The notes under the pieces: model-generated
What the model saw: only the letters and a program-made list of their open reading frames with translations
Told to the model about the DNA's origin: nothing
The model's database searches: none
From: Antedon mediterranea
Lineage: Eukaryota; Animalia; Echinodermata
DNA: 64,000 nucleotides
Direction: 5' to 3'
Assembly (NCBI RefSeq): GCF_964355755.1
Contig: NC_092674.1
Coordinates: forward strand, 4,402,001 to 4,466,000
Program-made: the position numbers and the translations under genes
Part shown: one piece after another, positions 1 to 42,000 of the stretch
Position numbering within the stretch: position 1 is the stretch's first letter
Layout of the letters: the number at the start of each line of letters is the position of its first letter

Positions 1-1548
1 TCTATAGTTAACACATTGTTGGGAATAGGGTGTTCTACTGGACACACTAAATAAGCCTGCAATGTCAAAACTGACTGATTACAATTACTAAAGTTCTTCT
101 CTATACGTATTATATTGATGCTAGAAATGAGTAATGGTTAGTTAAAGATGCAGAATCTAACCCAAAGGCATCGTAAAGAGCAGAGACTGAGTCGGTTTTG
201 AATGAAGAAGATCGCTGAAAATCAATAACGATAATGAATATGTTGACGTGAATGCCAATGGTAATTAGTCTATGGGCATGCATTTCAAGGCACGTAATCA
301 AAAAAGTTGTCATGCGCTTATTTGTGGGTGGTGTCGTGCAAAAAAAAGGAATATAAATTAAATAATAAGTAAATTAATTTAAACTGTATTCTAATCTGAA
401 AAAAAGTCGTGCAAGCAGGAACTATTGTACATTGCAAACAGAGTACTGTACATTGTGTGTCATAGTTCATAGTTCATAGTTCATGTGCATACGGTAGTTC
501 ATATGTATACAGTTAGAATTATAACGTACAGTATATTTAAATACACTGATTACTTTTCATTGGCAATACTAACTTAATATATACTGTATATACTATAATA
601 TACTGTATAGTGTTAGTTATAAAACCATGATATGATAAATTGATAGTGATACTATGTATGAAATGAATGAAGTTATGCAATGCAATATGCATATTATTAA
701 GAACAGATCTAGAATTTTTTAATTGAATTTATTTGTCCATCCACCAGCAATTAACTATTATTAAACCTTGTTTTAATACACCATCAAACTTTATGTGACA
801 AAAAATGTGATATGCCCATATATGGACATGATGATGTAATCATTACAAAAAAATGATACCATATTTGGGCATATCACTACCATATTTGGCCATATCACTA
901 CCAAATTTGGGCACATCACACTTTCTTTGTCAAACTAGTTTGATAGTGTAGACAGAGCTTTAAAAAGAAGATGAGACTGAAGTTTTCATCGATTATTTAA
1001 AGTTTTTTTATGTTGTCAAATTGTATGCTATTTGATTTACAGTATAAGAGGTTAAAGGTTACTGCTGCGATGCGATTTATTAATATTATTAGGCTAAACT
1101 AATTAAACAAGAGAGAGTGCATGTCTACGGTTGAGTAAGCTCGTTGACGAGGTAGTCAATATAAAGATGTCATTACCTACCTACAATGCAGTAGGTGTGA
1201 AATATAAGAGAAAGTCTACAGCTACTGTACAGTAGTGTTGTAAGTAGCTGCATACAGTTCACATACTGTCAAATATCGGCAATGGGGTTTAATTTTTTTT
1301 AAGACGTTAGTAGGGTACAGTACTACCCATCAATACAGTATGTCATACCTCATGGAAGTGAACTCCCACATTGAAGAAATTTGGGTCAGTGGTTTTACCG
1401 GATTACCAAATTATAATTTATAGGGGGCTGGCACAAAATACATCTTAAACTTGAGGATAAATTCCACCTGGGTGCTTTTACCTGTATATGCTCAAGAGAG
1501 GTTTCCACTGAATAGTAGACTCCCCAACCTCCAAAAAGTATTATTTAC

Positions 1549-4500
1549 CTGTGAACAGAAGGAAATATCACAGAATCTTTTTGCCATCACAGCCGTTTTC
1601 TTTCCTGGACTGATCAACGTTAAGGTTTCCTTGCCAATCTGGAACAACATGGTTCGATTCTGTGGATTGTGTTTACGCATCAACATCGTGGCGATACTTA
1701 ACTGTCTGTCAAAGTTCGGGACGCTTCCACGTTTTACAGGCACGTAGTGCCGAGCAGAACAATTACTAGCATCGCTGTTTGACCGCGGAATATCAAATTC
1801 TTCACATTCACTGTCCGTTTTATTTGAATCTAGGGATTCTGAACTGGTATTTCTTGAGAGCACAGGTACATTCATGTCAGCTACATTTTCTAGATCGTCA
1901 AACGATTGTGATTTCTTTCTCTCGCCGACGCTATTCGACCTCGATCTTGATTGGTCTCCTGTCGAGTAGTGTCGACGCCGCCTATCAATGTAGTCCTCAA
2001 TTTCATAATCTTTAAATTTACTGATAGCTTCGTCGATAAGTGATGGTGGTGCTTTCTTGTGCGATACGCTGACCCTTCCACAGTATAACACTTCATAGCT
2101 ATTACTGTTATCTACAATAGAGTCGGTATAAAATGGCAGTTCTTTTAACTGTGGGCTGTCGCTTTGATTGTACGATTTTCCTTCGACACTTTTTGCTGCT
2201 TCACGTATAGTTGAGTGGATTGTGCTCACCTAGGAAAGAAAAAGGAAGAGAATTTTAGTTTCACTGTTTAATTCAAGAAGTTTATAACAGTTAATTTAGT
2301 GCATGACTTTTAACTTTATTTATTCATTACTTAAAGTTATTTAGAGTATGTCTAAATATTTAATCTTTTCTACTGTAGCTACCATTTTGGATCCTTTTTT
2401 TTTTGTCTGGCTGTCTTAAAGTTTCCTTGTATATTATATTTTAAAATAATAGTAAAAGCCCAAATATGGTAGTTTACATTTTTATAGGCCTACTTTTTAA
2501 AACCCATTATTAATATTAATACTTTTTATAGTCTTTGGCTATATTTTGTAATTTTATACCTGAATAAAATTTTCTTTACAAATATACTTTGACAATAAAA
2601 ATTATAATTTTTTACATGAAATTTTATTGCGACAATTGACACAACCATAAATTTCTCGGTTCAATATCCACTGAAGCGTGAACTAATTATTTGCACTGTA
2701 CACAGACTGTAGTGTTGTTAGTACTTTAATAGGAGGCACCACTTTACTAATACTAACCTGTAATGCCACATATCAAAAACTTTGACCCCTATATTGTATT
2801 GACCTTAATAATATGGATAGTTAAATAGATACAGTACTCCCAAATGTCAACATAAGATAATTTCAAAATTATAGATAATAATGGATTGAAATGGTTCTCA
2901 TAGTATTTTATAGAGTGTATACTGTATGTTAGTAGTAGCGGTACTTGAACTCTTTGGATGCACCAATTGGGTGAAAAATGAGATCATTTAATTGCAGGGG
3001 TTTTTTTTTCGAAACTAGATGTATTGATTTTGTATCTTGTCTATATATTTATTTTTTAGAACGCACCAGGTATGAACGTTGTAAAGGTGTAGCTTCAATA
3101 TTATTATAGATGTAAGCTTTAATGATCAAAATAAAGTACTACACTTCATATTTGACTTTCACAGTTAAGGGTACTCTAGGGTTTAAATTTTACACCAATA
3201 AACACCAGCGTTCTCGCCAGGAATCGGCTAAAGCTCTGTCTACACTATTAAACTTTATGTGACAAAAACATGTGATGTACCCATGGACATCATGTCGTCC
3301 TACCCACTACCATAAATTCGTGTATCACTACAACAATATTTGGGCAAACTTTTTGTTGTCAAACTACAGTAGTTTGATAGTGTAGACAGGGCTTAAATAA
3401 AGTTCAAAGTATTATTCTGCTTCAATAGTAAATGCATTTTAGAATTATAAATATTAAAGATCATTAATATTAGAGTCTCTTTGATATATACCTTTAAATT
3501 GTTTATATTTATTATTTATATCAATAACATGCATAGAGCAGACAGTCTTTATGTATAAGATTTAGACCATGGAGGAAGAATAGTAAAAACCATTGTACTG
3601 TAGTCCTCCACTAGTACTCTATGAGTCATGGTGTTTTTTGGCCTTCCCACATAGGTAGACAGGTCTAAAATGATCAATACAGGAATTATGAGATAACAGT
3701 AATAGCTTTGTATTACCTGAATATTCAATTTCATATCTTGAAAGCTCTAGGTTAAATAACACTAGTGATTTTACAATGATGCAACATAATACAAGATTGT
3801 TTCCAGACATTTTTTAACCAAAATGGACATGGTAATAATGTGAAGCGCTTACAGGCTTGTGCTTTAAAAGCTATAAGATCGACATATTGTTTTTTATTAA
3901 TATAAATTCTTGACAAAATATGATATGAAATACAGCAATTGTTTAAAAATAAAACATCATTCTTGAAAAGAAATGATAAGTGGGTTTGCAGACAATTAAC
4001 GAATGATTTTTTTTTCTTCAGGTTTTAAATGTAAAAATAAAAATTAACTCCCTATACAAATGATATGGTCTGAATTGAATGTTAATAAAATTACTATTAA
4101 TTAATTTTACAGTACATCCAATGCTATCCTCATCTGTTACCTATTGTATACTGAATCTAGCACTTTAATACCATGATAGGATTTTATGTTCATTGCGTGG
4201 TGAATATTAAGAGCAAATTTCGAAATGTCATACAGTAATATGACATTAACATCACACACCATTTACTTTGTAGAAATTGACATTTTGCTTCCAACGTCAC
4301 AATACAGCCAACGACGACACAGCTAGCTATATAATTCTTATTTCTGAATTGAGTAAATTATCATAAAACCATTAAGTATTGGTTTTATTGTGTTTCAAGC
4401 AATGTACTGAATTTGAAAAGATAGTTTTATCAATATTAAAAGTATTGTAGCACAAGAATGTCCATATCATTTTAATCTACAGTATTATAAACTTATAATG

Positions 4501-6010
4501 CCAATGAATTTTAAATACTGTACCAAATAGCTTTGTATAGTAAAGTATCACTATCATGGTACTGTATAGCAGGGCTGCATTAAACAACAGTAGATAATTA
4601 TGAAATATTATATTCTCTCATGTTCAATGTACTGTTCAATGTATTGTATGCATATTAAATATCATTAATAATTTATTTGTTATCAATATCATTATCAGTC
4701 TTATTTTTTGTCAGCAGAGCTATAAACTGTATCTTAATAATTTTAATTTATATCACTTTGAACAATTAAATTATTACAAAATAGTTGGACTGCATCGTAA
4801 ATTTTATGTTTAATATTACTGTATTATGATGTTATAAAATAAACCAATGGGTATTTCCTGGCAACCATATTTAGATGTTTTATCGTAATAATCAATCAAA
4901 ATGAATCATCACATACTCTGACGCATTTTAAACAAACAGCACGAATCAAAAATGTGAAAACAGACACAGAATAAATATTTGTCATAGGGAACATTATGAC
5001 AAATGTCTTCTGTGGCAAGATGTTTATTTTAAATATTTCAAAAAATGACAGAAAATTAATTATGGATATTAAAATCATAACATTTGATTATCTCAAGGGT
5101 ACAGGAAAAATTGTCTTGGTCTCCAAGTAGGCCTAGAATTCATTTGTTTATGTTTTAATAAAGAGCCAGTTTTTTTTTAAATTTAAAATGGTAGCATCAA
5201 TTAATGCTGATGACTATACAAAGAAAAAAACTAAAACATTAAAAAAATTGCCCTCTCTCCACTAAATAAAATTTATTCAGAGGTTAACGCTTAAAAACAA
5301 GAATATATATTTATAGTGCCTAGTAGAATACCACCGGTTTGTTTTTTACTTGAAAGTGTGTTGAATAAAAACAGAATGAAAATTTATCAAAAATTTTTTT
5401 AAATGACATTAAAAACAATTAGGCCTAGCCTAGGCCTATAAATAATTTTGTATTCTTTAATTTTAGTACTTACCAATTCTAAATTTTCTACTTTAAAAAC
5501 AAAACACGTAAACGGTTTATCGCTTTCCCGTCTCCATAAATAACTGAAATATTGTTTGTCAATACCTCTACAAAACCTGCCAATGCCTTGCAAATGATGG
5601 CAGAAGGCAGTCTTCCCTGTTCTGTTCACAATTCCTTTTACTGTTTGATGGCAAACTTCAAGTGTTATCGGTTCCTCTTTTCCCTGTGCAACATGCTTCA
5701 CTTCGGCAACAATCCATGGCAAAAGTGGTTGAGTAATTCTTTTATCAAGAACAGAACAACCCAATAACATTAAATTAAAACGTTTAAATGAAGAATCTAA
5801 TTCGCTATTTTCGGTAAGCATGGTTCGATTTGTACCTGCCGCATCTTTTAGGTGCTCCTCCGGGGAAGAGTCAGGGCGACGAGCGTTTGTGGTGGTGCTT
5901 GTCAGTGGTGATTCGCTATCGCTGGGGCTTGAGTCTCGACAATTCACTCCGCTATCTTCCTCTGCTTGTTGTTCACTATAATTACGACAACTGTCATTGA
6001 AAGAGTTCAT
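1549..6010 (-). CDS. TBC1D1: TBC1 domain family member 1/4 (AS160-like Rab-GAP), 5' part: two N-terminal PTB-domain exons; gene continues off the left edge
   Basis: Exon 6010-5474 (ATG, 179 codons, TTG|GTAAGT) has 'LGCSVLDKRITQPLLPWIVAEV' (PTB1). Exon 2229-1549 (tag|GTG ... CAG|GTAAAT) has 'EVLYCGRVSVSHKKAPPSLIDEAISKF' and 'NRTMLFQIG...LISP...FCDISFCSQ' (PTB2). Both are typical of TBC1D1/TBC1D4; probably co-orthologous to the two vertebrate paralogs. Confidence 0.9.
3232..3393. mobile_element. Harbinger-type MITE family A copy
   Basis: taa|AGCTCTGTCTACAC…GTGTAGACAGGGCT|taa. Confidence 0.85.
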
Positions 6011-7373
6011 CGTGAAATACCTGTTTTACAAATAAGGATTTCCGTTTTAGAAAATCCACTCCGACATTTCTGGCAGGCTATAAAACAATTTTACGGATGT
6101 CTCAAGACTCATATGAATGAAAACGCTAGCTAAAAACACATTGCGGATGGTTGGAATCAGCTGCTCCGCCGTCGTGCAGAAGTCAGCCTGGCAGCGCAAT
6201 ACTCGTGCGCAAACGAGAAGGATAAGGATCTACGAGAGAGAGATTTGTATTGAAATATAGAGGGTGCTGTTTCCAAACTACATTTGAACGTAAAGTACGT
6301 ACGTCGTCTTTAGGATTAGGGTGCATTAAAAATATATATAAAAATGTGAATAAAAAGATAACAATACTCTAAAGTAAACAGTAACCTAACTGAGAAATTC
6401 CTCCATGCTACTATCACCCCTTTTCTTTACAATTAAGTAACTATCCATTTCATACCTTTAAAAGTGGCAATTTTCGTTGCTCTTGGTATTGATGAAATAA
6501 AATAAAATCAAGTTTAAGTTCAAATGTATTAGTGTCAAACAAATGTAATTTAAATTTGTATTCCAAAAAAATACAAATAACAAAAAAAGTACAATAACAA
6601 TATTAAAATACTTTATGTAAAAATTGAAAAACGTAGCGCCGGGGGCCGATTACATTATCACTATTAAAAGATTAGCATATATATGGTAAGTTCTATGTTT
6701 TGTAATGAAATGATGATTTAAGCATTTCCATTATATAAGAATAGCTCAAAAACGCAAAAGTCATTACAATTTTCATATGAAATGTAACAGTTACTTTAAA
6801 AAAACCGAAGAGATGATTTTTCTAAAATGACGGATGACTTTGTTGTTTTGATTATCATAAAAACGACAAAGTCATTATTATTGTAGATAGCCTAGCAATC
6901 CAATAATAAGTTATGTCTATTGTTATTGTATAGTTTTATCATTTTTTTAAGTTGACGAAATAAATGAAATAAAATGATGAACAGAAATTAAGCCTATATT
7001 ATAATAAATGAATATTAATGCATATAACTACAAAGTACGAAACCCACATAATGAAATTTTCATCAATTGGCAAATCACTTCATATTTTTCCAACATCAAT
7101 TCAACAACGACCAATACTATAATATAAATTTAAGCCTATATGATATTGATACAATAAGACTAACTTTACAAAAATGATTATTATAACATTCCACATTATA
7201 ATAATTATTATTATGAATATTTAGCATATGTTATGAGGGCGCTATTTAAAGTATACAAGTTTTACCGATTTCAATTTTCGACACACGAGCGAGAAGAGCC
7301 AGCCTACAGAGTGTGGTCATTTCCTGACAGTTTATCTCGGCATAAAACTGCTTCATAAAAGCCTAGGCCTAAA
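6011..7373. promoter_or_regulatory. Divergent intergenic region TBC1D1/4 - UCH
   Basis: Start codons on opposite strands about 1.36 kb apart, with CpG-richer patches near 6140-6310 and 7280-7370. Confidence 0.6.
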
Positions 7374-10300
7374 ATGTCTCAACCACCACAAAAATCACGC
7401 TGGCTACCACTAGAATCAAACCCAGATGTGAGTATTTCATGTTAAATTTGTATATAGTATTATGAATTTGAACAATTTTAATAACTCAACTGTATATTAC
7501 GATTATTCTCGAAGACGTAATTTCGTCACTGTTTTTTTTTTTATTTTGACGGTGTTGAGTTATCATAATTTATAACATAACACCACACCTAAACACAATT
7601 TTTTTCTTTTTTAAAATAATATAATACATAATAAAGTATTTGCCAATATACAGTGTGACATTTTTTCTTTATTTCTCTTTTCAGGTAATGAACAAAGTAA
7701 GTTGACACTATTTTAAAAAACTGAACTTCCAAGATAAACTTAAATAAACTTAAATAAACTGCCATCATTGATGTAATCACAATTTTGTTTTACCATTTTA
7801 GAGTCATTTTTCAGTTCTGAGAGACGGCACGGCTACTAGGCCTATTACTAATTATATAATAAAGTTTCGGTGGTTCTATAATTATGATAAAATTGAACTT
7901 TTAGTTTTAGATTCTACGCAGTCTGGAAGCATAATAGGCCCAGGTGGCCTTACGCCAGATCTGATCTACGCTTAGGCGTACTACTACACTGGAGTATGCA
8001 CAGTAATATAAAATACCTAGGTTATATACCTCTATTATGAAACACTGTAACAAATAAGTATATAGTGTAATTGGATCTAATAATATCTTTTAATTGCTAG
8101 TTTGCTCAGAAACTGGGTATGCCAAAAGAGTGGCAGTACGTTGACATCTACAGCTTGGACTTACTCGACATTGTACCCAAACCAGTAGCTGCTGTTCTTA
8201 TTCTCTTTCCAATTAGTAAGAAGGTAAAAACTAAATTTAAAACTCCTATTATATCGGTGTCAGGAATTCTACTGTGTTTCAGAGGAGTTATACTGTATTT
8301 AGAAAAACTACCTTCGTTTCTGTATGATATGTAATCTAAACTTCATTTTTATTGACTATGCCAAAATTATTTTACTGCAGTTACTGCAGTAACTATATTT
8401 TGTGCTCTTTAACATGCAATTATTTTGCAAGGTTTTGTTGGTGTAATATTTTTATTTCAGTGACTTGACTCTCAAACTTAAAAAAAATGTAGTTATTTGC
8501 AGTATATTCTCCTGTAATATATTTATTAATTAAATTTTACTTGTAGTATGAAGATTTCTGTAAAGAAGAACAGACCAAAATTAAGCAGGATGGCCAGGAA
8601 GTTAGCCCAAACTTGATGTTTATTAAGCAGACTATCGGCAATGCTTGTGGAACCATTGCGTTACTTCACTCGATCGCCAATAACACTGAAAAGATGCAGC
8701 TAAGTAAGGCATCTTTTAATTGATACCATTTCCATGCAAATAAACTCTCCAAATAAATATGCCTTACTAAAGCTCTGTCTACACTATCAAACTAGTAAAT
8801 GTGAGATGTGCCAAAATATTGTAGTGATAAGCCCAAATACTGTATGGTAGTGATATCCCCAAATATGGTAGTGATATGACATCATCATGTCCATATATGG
8901 GCACATCACATTTTTTTTAAACAAGCATAAAGTTTGATAGTGTAGACAGAGCTTAAGTGATAAGTTAAAGTTTGATCTCCAATATTCCATTAATTCTGCA
9001 TGTATTTTTTAAAAGCATAATAATCACACATGTTGAATGTGGTTATTGAAAAAATATAAATGTTGACATTATTATTGTTTTTTCCTATCTTTTTCAGGTG
9101 GATTTTTAAGCAATTTTATTGAAAAAACAAAGTCAATGACTCCAGAAGAAAGAGCAAGTTTTCTGGAGAGTGATGAGGGCCTTTGTGCCGCCCATGAAGA
9201 AAGTGCTCAAGAAGGACAAACTGAGGTAAGTAGGTCTATATTCTCATTCGTACAACCTCCCCCAACCCCCCATAAAAGGAAATAGAAAGATTTGTATTGA
9301 CTAATAGTACCAGTAGATTTAAGGTTGTAAATTGATAATGTTATTTTTTGCAACTAACTTGTTTAATAATTGGCAGTGAATGATCATCTAAAATTTAAGT
9401 GTGTCAAATTGACCTCACACATTGTGTGATATGGTTATAATTTCTATCAGTCTGGAAAAAGAGACTACTACCCTTAATATTAACTAAGACATGAACATCT
9501 GGAAAATGAGACTACTATACTATTACCAACCTGAATATTACCTAAGATATGGAAAATGAGACTATTATTACTAGATATTAGTAAATATGGATATCTGGGC
9601 TTATAATTGAACATATTTGTATTCACTTTATATTTCAAAATGTTCTTTTTTTTGGAGACATTCTTTTATTATGATTGTAAAATGGTAGAAAGTTAAAACC
9701 GTTTTCACAGCCCCCACCTCGTGAAGAACATACTGAACTACACTTTCTAACCCTGGTCTCCAAAGACGGGTACATTTACGAGATGGATGGCCGTAAACAG
9801 CACCCAGTTAATCATGGTCCGACCACCGACGAAGGTTTCCTGCAGGTATGGCGCCCTCCCAATATCCGTGCTTCATCATGCATGTTTTTGGTTCTTTTTT
9901 TTTTTTTGGTTCTACCCCGCTTTGGTTGTGTAGGCACGGGACGAAGAAGTTAATTTACATTTTATATCATTGGTCCATATGGACGGTCATCTGTATGAAA
10001 TGGACGGTAGGAAACCTAATCCCATTAATCATGGAAAATCAAGCAAAGAAACGCTACTTGAGGTAATCATTTGACATTTAATACATAGTGCCCTCTTTAC
10101 ACTAACATAACAATTATAGCATTATGCTTGGTTATTAAAATATGTTTATTTATAAATCTCTGTATAAAAGGCTCAAATCCTAGCTCTGCCACTGTATCGG
10201 GATTTGTATTCATAGCCGAAAAGTAGTTACTATCACTTTATAAGGGTAGAGAAAGTTTTATTTCTGATGTTAGCATTCAATTCAAAAAATGTTATACAAA

Positions 10301-11663
10301 TATGAATGTTTATGAGTGTAATGGTACAAATAATGGCATGAGGTGAATAATGAAAGGTTATATATCAACGAGGTATCAAATCCTGATACAACATTTATTT
10401 AAAAAGCAATAGTATAAACAAAATATTTTTGAAAACGCGAAAAAAAATTTTTTCGTACACAAAAAAGTACTATTGAACGACCTTTCAATAGTGCATACTA
10501 GCATGTGACCTACAATCGTCTAATCAAATGACAGGAATTTATTTAGGTGTTAACGTCAACGTTAGTAATATTGATGAGTAATTGTAGCCTAACTTATGTA
10601 TTTCTATATTTACCATTATACTATTGTGGGTCGTTCTCAGTTAAAAAAATAAATATCCTATTATGCTTTTATTTTAGTTCTTCATCTTCCTTTGTCTTGC
10701 AAATAGTACCATGAACAAATTTATTTTGCATGTCCACACCATATATCCATTATAAATCCATATTCATATAATTATGATTATGTTTCTTTATAACACACCT
10801 ACTGTATTTGTATCAATGATTTTGGATCAAATTTCGTGCATTGTTTTCTCCCATCTCAACGATTGATTCACATGGCCTAACCTTCGACATTTGATTCAAG
10901 ATGGTACAGTAGGTGGCTGATTGATTGAAAAGGTTATATAAGAACAGTAAGAGTGTTTTGCATTCGTTGAATGGGGGAAATATTTTGAAAGCTTGATAAT
11001 CTAACAGGATGCTGAGCTCCTGAGATCAAAGGGTACTCTTGGTATTTGTTGCAGCCAGACATAAAGCGTGGTTCCCACTAACGACGCAAGACAAGGACGT
11101 AACGCAACGCAAGTGAATTGACCAATCACAAGCGATGGCTTATTCGCTTGTTTCTTTCTTTCTTTATTTACCCATAAATATAAATTATAAACATTGTAAT
11201 ATACAAATAATAATAATTATATCAAGGGATATTGATTGCTAACTGTCTATAAACTTCGCTTGTTATTGGTTAAAACGCTTGCGTTGCGTTTACGTCCTTG
11301 CGTTACGTTCTAGTGGGAACCAATCTTATGATCAAAGAACTGTTACAAGTTCCTATCTTGGCAAGGCGAGCTCAGTCTCCTGTTGTTAGATTGCCTTGTT
11401 TCTATTCCATATGTGTTCTTTTCCTAGTGTGTTCCTCTCTTCAGAGAGAGGGGCTAATGTTGGTTTATCCAGGTAAGCGACACCACTGTTGATTTGTGCA
11501 ATTATGTTGTTGCAGTAGAATAATGTTAACATGGTCTCTTATGTTTTTAAAACATATATTTCAAATCCAGGATGCTGCCGCTGTGTGCCAACAATTTATG
11601 AATCGTGATAAAGCTGAACTACGGTTTACTCTGATAGCCTTGTCAAAGAACCCGGATTTGTAA
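7374..11663 (+). CDS. UCHL3: Ubiquitin C-terminal hydrolase, peptidase C12 (UCHL1/UCHL3 co-ortholog), about 231-233 aa
   Basis: Exons: 7374-7427 ([18 protein letters not shown]), 7685-7696 (VMNK), 8101-8223, 8547-8703 ([10 protein letters not shown], catalytic Cys), 9098-9225 ([12 protein letters not shown]), then 9711-9845 or 9934-10062 (HF...YEMDGRK, catalytic His/Asp), and 11571-11663 ([13 protein letters not shown]...RFTLIAL..*). All introns are GT-AG and the phases join. Confidence 0.95.
7685..7696 (+). CDS. UCHL3: 12-nt microexon of the UCH gene (VMNK)
   Basis: ttctcttttcag|GTAATGAACAAA|gtaagt. Needed to restore the ESNPD-VMNK-FAQKLG N-terminus, with phase 0 on both sides. Confidence 0.9.
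8771..8953. mobile_element. PIF/Harbinger-type MITE, family A (representative copy; about 25 copies in the window)
   Basis: TIR AGCTCTGTCTACACTATCAAACT, flanked by TAA on both sides (3-bp TWA TSD), with internal 'atatcactaccatatttgg' repeats. Other full or partial copies near 770, 3232, 11793, 14085, 15689, 16028, 16520, 19112, 19489, 19811, 21105, 21779-22268, 25813, 30745, 33298, 35650, 35998, 38311, 42475, 42791, 43348, 44410, 55440 and 61820. Confidence 0.85.
9711..9845 (+). CDS. UCHL3: UCH alternative exon 6a ([45 protein letters not shown])
   Basis: ttttcacag|...CAG|gtatgg, 135 nt, phase 0-0, open frame, catalytic H (LHF) and D (EMDGRK). Confidence 0.9.
9934..10062 (+). CDS. UCHL3: UCH alternative exon 6b ([43 protein letters not shown])
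   Basis: Long poly-T tract ...ttgtgtag|...GAG|gtaatc, 129 nt, phase 0-0, open frame, homologous to 6a with intact catalytic H and D. Confidence 0.88.
11064..11327. mobile_element. Harbinger-like MITE family B nested in another MITE
   Basis: TIR AGCGTGGTTCCCACTA…TAGTGGGAACCAATCT with internal ACGCA repeats. Relatives at about 36470-36668 and 61292-61430. Confidence 0.75.
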
Positions 11664-11792
11664 GATCACCAAGTTGAAAGCGAGAACTTGACGCTAACGA
11701 ATCACCTGACTGAAGATATCCAATCGCAGACTGTACTTGTCTTCTACCTAGCAATTGGTGTGTACGCCCCTTCCTTATAAGCTAAAGTTTAA

Positions 11793-11967
11793 AGCTCTGT
11801 CTACACTATCAAACTAGTTTGACATAATATTGTGATGTGCCCAAATATGGTAGTGATATGTTTAAATAGGGTAGTGATATCAGCGAGGTATACCTCCCTG
11901 GTGATATGACATCATATGGGCACATTACATTTTTTGTCGCATAAAGTTTGATAGTGTGGACAGAGCT
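11793..11967. mobile_element. Harbinger-type MITE family A copy in the UCH 3'UTR
   Basis: Same TIRs, 130 nt after the stop codon. Confidence 0.8.
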
Positions 11968-39044: not shown

Positions 39045-42000
39045 CTACGTATCTTTGTCAAGTAATTCTCTCAGTATTGTTATTGCAAGTTGAGCTTGAA
39101 TTTTTCGCCCCGTCTTCTTCTGAATAATACCCATCAATCTATTTATAGCTGCCTTATTTCCAGCTCTGTATATCTTTACCTAAACAAATAGATATTAAAG
39201 ATGATGAATTTTTCAGTTAAAAAATAACTTTCTAACTGACACCTGTCTTTCAACTATCTAACTGACATCTAACTGTCTGTCAACTATCTAACTTGCATCT
39301 AACTACCTGTCAACTATCTAACTGGCAACTAACTGCCTGTAAACTATCTAACTGGCATCTAACTGCCTGTCAACTTTCTAACTTGCATCTAACTAATAAT
39401 ATATTTCCAATAGAAATTCAATGCAAACTATACAAATCACTTATGGCTCCTCATCTTGAGTATTGCCATGTTGTTTGGGGACGTTCAAATATAACTCAAA
39501 GTAAAACACTACAAGTTCTTCAAAATCGCGCAGCAAAAGTTATTACAAACAAATCTCAAACCGACTCTAGTACTCAAGCTCTACAAAGTCTAAATTGGAT
39601 GAACTTAGATGAAAGATTATATGTAAATGAAGCTATTGTTATGTTTAAGATTATGAACAACCTTGCACCTCCATATTTATTAAATAAGTTCAATATCAAA
39701 AACAATTACTATAATATTAGAACTAAGCCAAATTTAATAGTACCAAAACCAAAAACAAACAAACATTATCATATAGAGGTGCCAAGGTTTGGAATGAGCT
39801 ACATGAAGATATTAAAAATGTGAACTCTGTCTCTCTTTTTAAGAAACTGTTAACTGCTAATTTCATGTAGCTTTATTTAAATGTAGTGTATTATTTAATT
39901 TTATAGTTAGTAAGTGTATCCTTGTTTTTTTATCTGCTTTTGTTTTTTGCTTCTGTAATTGTTTTATTATTTGATTTGATATCTACTTTTTACATTTATT
40001 ATTGTTGGTGTTTTCCTTTGAGCACGGTCTTACTGAAAAACAACTTTTAGTTGAGTTAAGTATCCGTGATTAAATAAAGCTTATTATTATTATTATTAAC
40101 TGCCTGTCAACTATCTAACAGCCTGTCAACTATCTAACTGGCTTCTATCTAACTGACTGTAAACTATCTAACTGGCATCTAACTACTTGTCAACTATCTA
40201 ACTGGCATCTAACTGACTGTCAACTATTTAACTAGCAACTAACTGACTGACAACTAACTGACTGACAACTAACTACCTGTCAACTATCTAACTGGTATCT
40301 AACTACCTGTAAACTATCTGACTGGCATCTAACTGACTGTCAACTATCTAACTGGTATCTAACTACCTGTAAACTATCTGACTGGCATCTAACTGACTGT
40401 CAACTATCTAACTGGCATCTAACTCCCCTGTCAACTATCTAACTGGTATCTAACTGCCTGTCAACTATCTAACTGGCATCTAACTGACTGTCAACTATTT
40501 AACTAGCAACCAACTGACTGACAACTAACTACCTGTCAACTATCTAACTGGTATCTAACTACCTGTAAACTATCTGACTGGCATCTAACTGACTGTCAAC
40601 TATCTAACTGGTATCTAACTACCTGTAAACTATCTGACTGGCATCTAACTGACTGTCAACTATCTAACTGGCATCTAACTCCCCTGTCAACTATCTAACT
40701 GGTATCTAACTGCCTGTCAACTATCTAACCGGCATCTAACTGCCTGTCAACTATCTAACTGGCATCTAACTGCCTGTCAACTATCTAACTGGCATCTAAC
40801 TGCCTGTCAACTATCTAACTGGCATCTAACTGCCTGTCAACTATCTAACTGGCATCTAAACTCCCCTGTCAACTATCTAACTGGCATCTAACTGCCTGTC
40901 AACTATCTAACTGGCATCTAACTGCCTGTCAACTATCTAACTGGCAACTAACTGCCTGTCAACTATCTAACTGGCATCTAACTGCCTGTCAACTATCTAA
41001 CTGGCATCTAACTGCCTGTCAACTATCTAACTGGCATCTAACTGCCTGTCAACTATCTAACTGGCATCTAAACTCCCCTGTCAACTATCTAACTGGCATC
41101 TAACTGCCTGTCAACTATCTAACTGGCATCTAACTGCCTGTCAACTATCTAACTGGCATCTAAACTCCCCTGTCAACTATCTAACTGGCATCTAACCACC
41201 TGTCAACTACCTAACTGGCATCTAACTGCCTGTCAACTATCTAACTGGCATCTAACTGCCTGTCAACTATCTAACTGGCATCTAACTGCCTGTCAACTAT
41301 CTAACTGGCATCTAACTACCTGTAAACTATCTAACTGGCATCTAAACTCCCCTGTCAACTATCTAACTGGCATCTAACTGCCTGTCAACTATCTAACTGG
41401 CATCTAACTGCCTGTCAACTATCTAACTGGCATCTAAACTCCCCTGTCAACTATCTACAGTAACTGGCATCTAACCACCTGTCAACTATCTAACTGGCAT
41501 CTAACTGCCTGTCAACTATCTAACTGGCATCTAACTGCCTGTCAACTATCTAACTGGCATCTAACTGCCTGTCAACCCTCAACTACAAATTTCCACTTTA
41601 CCGGTTCTGGATTTTCTTGGATTACTTCTCTACATAATTCTTCCAATGCACTTCTATCTGTGATTTGTTTCCAGTTATTTTCTTCAATAATCTAACAAGA
41701 AAGTAAAGGTGGGTTATTATCAAAATTAACTAAATTTTGGGTTCTGCTATAGCACATCCATCTAAATTACAATATTAAATTTACACTCATTGAACACTCT
41801 TGGATACTATGTACTGTAATTAATCAGGATTGGCATTTTAATTAAATTCAAAAGACATTTATTTTCGTCCAACAGACAATACGTCAAATAAAAACAGTAG
41901 TAACAGATTGAGATTATTGAAAAAAGTAATGGACGAAGGCAGGATCCCAAAAAGATGAAAAGGTTGTGGCGGGATTGCCTTGACGAATTAATAATTAACA

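Follow-up and report, generated by a model that had tools for sequence, protein, structure and literature searches.

Tandem, alternatively used exons for the catalytic His and Asp of a UCHL3-like deubiquitinase in the crinoid Antedon mediterranea

Transcripts of the UCHL3-like deubiquitinase gene of the crinoid Antedon mediterranea appear to take either of two tandem, homologous exons, 6a and 6b, each of which encodes the end of the crossover loop together with the catalytic His and Asp. The account that we consider probable is that the two exons are swapped for one another, that a branch point lying too near the 6a donor likely blocks their joining, and that the two predicted active enzymes likely differ. 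The gene lies on the plus strand of a window of 64,000 nucleotides (contig NC_092674.1, positions 4,402,001 to 4,466,000), the whole stretch of DNA analysed here, and its paired exons had been singled out in a sequence-only reading as one gene with two active sites.

Gene structure and exon usage

An eight-exon model drawn from window coordinates, with GT-AG introns throughout, reproduces letter for letter the RefSeq proteins X1 (XP_071949446.1, with 6a, 233 aa), X2 (with 6b, 231 aa) and X3 (XP_071949448.1, with 6a but without exon 2, 229 aa). Its parts are as follows.

7374..7427, plus strand: coding exon 1, ATG to donor (RefSeq-matching exon model)
7685..7696, plus strand: exon 2, 12 nt, left out of isoform X3 (RefSeq-matching exon model)
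8101..8223, plus strand: exon 3 (exon model)
8547..8703, plus strand: exon 4, encoding the oxyanion Gln and the catalytic Cys (codon 8646-8648) that both forms share (exon model, alignment)
9098..9225, plus strand: exon 5, whose end encodes the first part of the crossover loop; the donor at 9226 serves both 6a and 6b (exon model, joints)
9711..9845, plus strand: exon 6a, 135 nt, 45 aa, the apparently derived copy with the longer loop (joints, RefSeq)
9741-9743 and 9786-9788, plus strand: catalytic His and Asp codons of 6a
9934..10062, plus strand: exon 6b, 129 nt, 43 aa, the apparently conventional copy with a loop 2 aa shorter (joints, RefSeq)
9958-9960 and 10003-10005, plus strand: catalytic His and Asp codons of 6b
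11571..11663, plus strand: exon 7, common acceptor and coding part through the stop codon (exon model, joints)

Exons 6a and 6b are homologous neighbors in phase 0 with AG and GT on either side, as the sequence-only reading had proposed; the translations it gave (45 and 43 aa) are exact, and its junction coordinates (9225, 9711, 9845, 9934, 10062 and 11571) are correct. Each exon alone scores above the 27-bit Pfam cut-off for Peptidase_C12 (43 bits for 6a, 50.9 for 6b), so neither match is due to chance, and the whole isoforms reach 229.9 (6a) and 236.9 bits (6b). The catalytic His and Asp, said earlier to be kept in both exons, are seen in both translations and in alignments of 55 sequences, where Q91, C97, H169/H167 and D184/D182 (6a/6b numbering) are invariant. 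To speak of two active sites is apt insofar as each copy brings its own His and Asp, but both forms have the catalytic Cys and most of the fold in common, and their triad residues do not differ. Elsewhere in the gene, isoforms lacking the same four residues of exon 2 are also annotated in sea urchins, a sea cucumber, amphioxus, crustaceans and corals, and skipping of this 12-nt micro-exon may be ancient.

The stretch is contained in five sequencing runs, none of them on record as RNA. Splicing is read from the assembled contigs of one run (X1 in our labeling, distinct from the isoform of that name), which was taken for RNA by guess and treated as such because its contigs contain GT..AG joints. 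Over positions 9000-10150 these contigs hold the joints 9225>9711 (exon 5 to 6a, depth 106.6) and 9225>9934 (exon 5 to 6b, depth 231.7), both GT..AG, together with an unspliced intron contig (depth 11.8), contig depth being a poor measure of expression. The loose ends that follow 6a and 6b both read as the start of exon 7. All four single-exon junctions named in the earlier junction check (5>6a, 5>6b, 6a>7 and 6b>7) are thus present, and the isoforms annotated in two species likewise show both duplicated exons in use. The fifth junction, 6a>6b, is absent from the contigs of this run, whose assembly drops rare variants. Since the 6a contig runs continuously into exon 7 and the 6b contig continuously from exon 5, we infer that no abundant competing junction exists; low-level double inclusion is compatible with one run seen at contig level. 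A protein of 276 aa with both exons, from either crinoid, does not occur among the 120 matches listed in a search of 125-401 aa. In that one run, then, each transcript seen takes a single exon, as the proposal of exclusive use had it.

Three further, DNA-like runs from one sample each cover both exons in a single contig of 1384 nt with 0 differences, so the duplication is no artefact of assembly. RefSeq contains 6a and 6b isoforms in two crinoid genera (Antedon mediterranea and Anneissia japonica), models that may derive from the same reads as our RNA-like run.

The surroundings of the gene are also of some interest. A PTB-domain gene (PID match, E 1.5e-4) at 1495-6025 on the minus strand stands head to head with it; we take this neighbor to resemble TBC1D1/TBC1D4, and TBC1D4 is a close neighbor of human UCHL3, which suggests an old microsynteny of UCHL3 and a TBC1D1/TBC1D4-like gene. 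Very high-copy short repeats at about 8770-8960, 11060-11370 and 11790-11940 occupy UCHL3 introns and the sequence just past the stop codon; with inverted ends and a summed contig depth thousands of times the background, they look like MITEs. A tandem array of units of about 27 nt (39266-41692) reads as open frames of a repeated peptide. Other genes noted over 14800-62000 are listed here.

About 15 kb, minus strand: Frag1/PGAP2-like gene
About 20-27 kb, minus strand: Cys-rich gene, presumably NFXL1-like; no Pfam match for the piece tested
From about 30 kb, plus strand: UBE3A (AZUL and HECT)
About 43-46 kb, minus strand: GatB
About 60-61 kb, plus strand: phosphoglucomutase

The 6a-6b intron and the probable enforcement of exclusivity

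Both exons are multiples of three nucleotides, and a transcript that included them together would stay in frame, free of stops, and encode 276 aa. Since joint inclusion neither shifts the frame nor adds a stop, decay cannot enforce exclusivity, and exclusion through nonsense-mediated decay is ruled out. A different explanation is offered by the short intron between the two exons.

9846..9933, plus strand: 6a-6b intron, 88 nt, GT-AG, with no internal AG, an A-poor 3' part and a long U tract
9872..9876, plus strand: predicted 6b branch point, the sole yUnAy match (motif prediction)

The predicted branch A, at 9875, is 30 nt away from the 6a donor, with 59 nt separating it from the 6b acceptor; the As at 9878 and 9914 are weaker candidates. 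Branch points less than 50 nt from a donor fall under the reported criterion for steric interference (PMC5740500), a mechanism also described in PMC4165533. Since the only consensus branch point of this 88-nt intron is so close to the donor, joining of 6a to 6b is probably prevented by steric exclusion at the predicted site. The arrangement resembles that of alpha-tropomyosin, where a short donor-to-branch distance accompanies exons that are multiples of three (PMC5740500, PMC4165533), but the Antedon branch point is known only as a prediction. The motif itself is an imperfect guide in Antedon, as intron 1 has no yUnAy 15-100 nt from its acceptor.

The composition of the intron is unusual within the gene. 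Its GC content is 43%, against 23-33% in the six other introns, and its last 50 nt hold 2 As where the others have 12-20 (binomial P = 1e-6). Of 1735 YAG sites on the plus strand no other is of this kind, and of 2040 on the minus strand none is, but most YAG sites are not splice sites and the comparison with the six introns is the fairer one.

A less probable course, to which we would give perhaps a quarter of our belief, is that exclusivity is real but is imposed by a repressor on the U-rich tract or by a competing RNA structure, the branch point then lying at a usual distance. The A at 9914, 20 nt from the acceptor, would be so placed, in a weak context, and is accompanied by the long pyrimidine tract; PTB-type control is moreover reported for other exon pairs (PMC3060452). 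The depletion of A and the missing AG, on the other hand, suit a distant branch point. RNA structure is an unlikely enforcer: the region of the intron folds worse than its shuffles (z = +1.64), and the only inverted repeats in 9200-10200 are short (10-22 nt), none of them touching the 6a-6b intron.

Two predicted forms of the enzyme

AlphaFold models of the 6a and 6b isoforms (pLDDT 93.4 and 92.0) place the end of the preceding helix at residue 153 and the start of the strand bearing the catalytic His at 168 (6a) or 166 (6b), predicting crossover loops of 14 and 12 residues. In a fold search, the best match of the 6b model was UCHL3-UbVME (1xd3; TM 0.92, 58% identity). The stretch from EGQ to the catalytic HF, counted earlier as 12 aa with 6a and 10 aa with 6b, has these lengths in the translations. 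A count of 12 was found in 250 of 264 homologues, a set rich in fish and in isoforms, and a count of 10 in four, namely both 6b isoforms and two others, with nine lacking the motif and one parsing error. Twelve is thus the norm of the family and 6b carries a deletion. In two UCHL3-like proteins (P0113 and P0119) the loop lacks 2 aa just where it does in 6b, apparently through an independent deletion. Among 71 scorable distant representatives, counts of 9-11 occur in 29, and their recurrence in many homologues indicates that loop length drifts.

Exon 6a departs from the family in another way. Across 252 homologues, its T at His-3 is found in 4% and its E at His-2 in 2%, while L at His+2 and Q at His+19 are present in about 0%. 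These rare residues, which flank the His and follow the Asp-Gly-Arg motif, are kept in both crinoids. Judged by its residues, 6a is the more derived copy, and 6b the conventional one with a 2-aa deletion.

Loop length is reported to set substrate range in this family, with 11 residues in UCHL1 and 14 in UCHL3, and cleavage of K48 diubiquitin is reported to need more than 14 (PMC4822132, PMC12278803, PMC10816476, PMC9501053, PMC5665613). Both forms are predicted to be catalytically competent, given the intact triad and the UCHL3 fold. Since both loops are at or below the 14-residue limit, the substrates of both would be small ubiquitin or NEDD8 adducts and precursors, not chains. The loops of 14 and 12 residues, with about 12 fixed substitutions by the His and after the Asp, suggest that the isoforms likely differ in how fast they turn over substrate or in how large a leaving group they tolerate: 6b would give a tighter, otherwise conventional enzyme and 6a a remodelled one. 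A real difference in activity is somewhat better than an even prospect.

Against such a difference stands the reading, rather unlikely in our estimate, that the exons are truly exclusive and the enzymes nearly equivalent, in which case the pair would owe its retention to regulation, stability, oxidation sensitivity or partner binding and not to substrate range. The triad and core motifs are indeed identical, and neither predicted loop exceeds 14 residues, which places both under the reported threshold for diubiquitin cleavage. A loop of 12 residues need not be restrictive, because Leishmania DUB16, with such a loop, is reported to process Ub-L40 about as fast as UCHL3 does and to cleave some diubiquitins at a slow rate (bioRxiv 10.1101/2025.02.28.640783). 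Substitutions between human tandem exons are also reported as mostly conservative (PMC9741552). What near-equivalence leaves unexplained is that 6a has fixed family-rare residues beside the His and after the Asp in both crinoids.

A bolder proposal, put forward in the sequence-only reading, was that splicing recreates the vertebrate split, with 6a as the UCHL3 type and 6b as an analogue of UCHL1, here a slow, tight, neuron-type enzyme. We regard it as improbable. The values it gave for the EGQ-to-HF stretch of the human enzymes, 12 in UCHL3 and 9 in UCHL1, are right by PDB alignments, and the 10 of 6b, one above human UCHL1, equals that of six UCHL1-signature representatives. UCHL1 is reported to be specific to jawed vertebrates (PMC7542113), so invertebrates would have no UCHL1 gene for that job. 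In loop length the analogy may hold, but in sequence it is not supported, as 6b is nearer to UCHL3. It scores 65 bits to human UCHL3 and 50 to UCHL1 (6a reaches 46 to UCHL3), is UCHL1-like at 1-2 and UCHL3-like at 3-4 of six diagnostic sites, and has mean identities, out of 40, of 26.5-27.0 to the UCHL3 type versus 20.8-23.6 to the UCHL1 type, measured against 11 UCHL1-signature and 11 vertebrate UCHL3-type sequences. It also lacks the loop Cys of UCHL1 and the Phe before the His, and the greater depth of 6b in the one run counts weakly against a specialized role of this kind. Nor can 6a be called the UCHL3-like copy by sequence, 6a being the more derived and 6b the conventional one.

The comparison with the vertebrate enzymes can be stated for each in turn. 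Human UCHL3 (1UCH, 1XD3) shares the fold and the Cys-His-Asp triad, and its EGQ-to-HF stretch has the length seen with 6a, but it possesses a single copy of the segment. Vertebrate UCHL1 (PDB 2ETL) comes close to 6b in its short loop (human 9, UCHL1-signature representatives 9-10, 6b 10) but is the product of gene duplication, and its diagnostic residues are mostly missing from 6b. An intron interrupts the human UCHL3 gene at the catalytic Asp, within the segment that forms a single exon in Antedon.

Age of the pair, parallels and meaning

The crinoid Anneissia japonica has the same two forms, its isoform X1 being of the 6a type and its X2 of the 6b type with the identical 2-aa deletion. Between the two genera, 37 of 45 residues agree in 6a and 36 of 43 in 6b (82-84%), compared with 121/150 in the shared N-terminal part and 23/30 in the other shared part. 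The copies 6a and 6b agree with each other at only 20-22 of 43 positions (about 50%), and 12 positions, one of them at the edge of the gap, are fixed differences between the two types. Synonymous sites are saturated between 6a and 6b of the window (pS = 0.84, pN = 0.30). From these identities and this saturation it follows that each copy is under as much constraint as the other parts of the enzyme and that the duplication is older than the split of Antedon and Anneissia, for which no date was found in the open literature. The earlier suggestion of an old duplication under selection is borne out to this extent.

Exon trees (37 segments, 45 columns) group each type across species, and place 6a with a sponge and 6b with a hemichordate instead of as sisters; an AU test of crinoid 6a and 6b as one clade gave p = 0.04 under LG+G4 and 0.07 under a mixture model, but 45 columns are unable to date the duplication. 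A Met common to 6a and 6b is rare in the family (11 of 252 homologues), and it favors, as far as residues can tell, an origin within echinoderms. A pre-bilaterian age was considered and is unsupported, given that shared Met.

A swap in this segment was absent from the annotated isoform clusters of Strongylocentrotus, Lytechinus, Apostichopus, Ptychodera and Branchiostoma, and likewise no within-species swap appeared in those of Nematostella, Oscarella and three crustacean genera; an isoform less than 90% identical would sit in another cluster, and the clusters include no named sea star or brittle star. Among the best 150 representatives found with 6b as query, no UCH protein carries two copies of the segment: 149 have one stretch and one repeat protein has six.

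That one copy is a decaying pseudo-exon or an artefact of assembly or annotation is barely credible and largely refuted: only the dependence on one RNA-like run speaks for it, while single DNA-like contigs from three runs of one sample cross both exons, both are spliced in the RNA-like run, and each is kept at 82-84% in a second genus while synonymous sites between the copies are saturated.

Corals offer what may be a second case. All 7 of the 7 equal-length isoform pairs compared, taken from the public annotation of Acropora palmata, A. millepora, A. muricata, another Acropora and Porites harrisoni (P0015/P0148, P0145/P0156, P0146/P0151, P0147/P0158, P0149/P0150, P0154/P0157 and P0246/P0250), differ only from Asp+2 to the end of the exon-6 segment. 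At the residue that corresponds to human UCHL1 Arg178 (Asp176+2), one form has Arg and the other Thr; R178Q is reported to raise UCHL1 activity to 400% (PMC10816476, PMC7542113). Porites lutea has both forms, Montipora the Thr form only, and Pocillopora, Orbicella and Oculina the Arg form only. As in crinoids, the isoforms are identical except within the exon-6 segment; unlike in crinoids, the swap begins only after the catalytic Asp and leaves the loop untouched. Because these boundaries differ from those of the crinoid exon, a separate duplication, with a mutually exclusive exon pair deduced here from proteins, is likely. Tentatively, the His/Asp segment of the ancestral UCHL1/L3 enzyme might then be a hot spot at which splice-encoded switches of activity arise repeatedly, acting through loop length and the His flanks in crinoids and through the residue at the Arg178 position in corals.

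As a class, the mechanism is well known. PKM1/2 is another enzyme with homologous mutually exclusive exons. In KHK-A/C, CAMK2D, ACOX1 and ATE1, as here, a tandem duplicated exon is reported to exchange one homologous stretch next to the active site for another; the closest case is KHK, whose catalytic Arg is part of the exchanged region and is retained by both forms, and convergent origin of tandem-exon events in unrelated lineages is documented (PMC9741552). Unlike these cases, Antedon swaps two of the three triad residues and the gating loop together, with a change of length. The supplement of a human tandem-exon catalogue (PMC8373072) has 0 matches for UCHL1, UCHL3, UCHL5 or USP, against 5 for the control KHK. 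The sequence-only reading knew of no description of such a pair, and the open literature yielded none for any UCH gene with exons that are duplicated or mutually exclusive; both isoforms are already present, uncommented, in the automated RefSeq annotation. No paper on mutually exclusive splicing in crinoids was found in the open literature, and invertebrate exon catalogues in subscription papers or bioRxiv supplements could contain a description. Within these searches, no other deubiquitinase has a mutually exclusive catalytic exon, and the Antedon pair would be the first.

What UCHL1 and UCHL3 naturally act on, and what purpose their difference in loop length serves, is reported as still open (PMC12278803). 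In the crinoid gene, selection has preserved the loop and catalytic strand in two versions while the rest of the protein is the same, a clean natural experiment that could take the place of engineered loop swaps, and the short intron between the exons may be an invertebrate example of steric exclusion, with a sequence signature of unusual clarity. If the hot-spot reading were true, a single invertebrate locus would yield kinetically distinct UCHs, much as vertebrates do with separate UCHL1 and UCHL3 genes, and the two crinoid isoforms would form a naturally matched pair on which the effect of loop length alone could be tested. The coral pairs suggest that this segment became switchable on two occasions, an argument that tuning of UCH activity may have been repeatedly useful.
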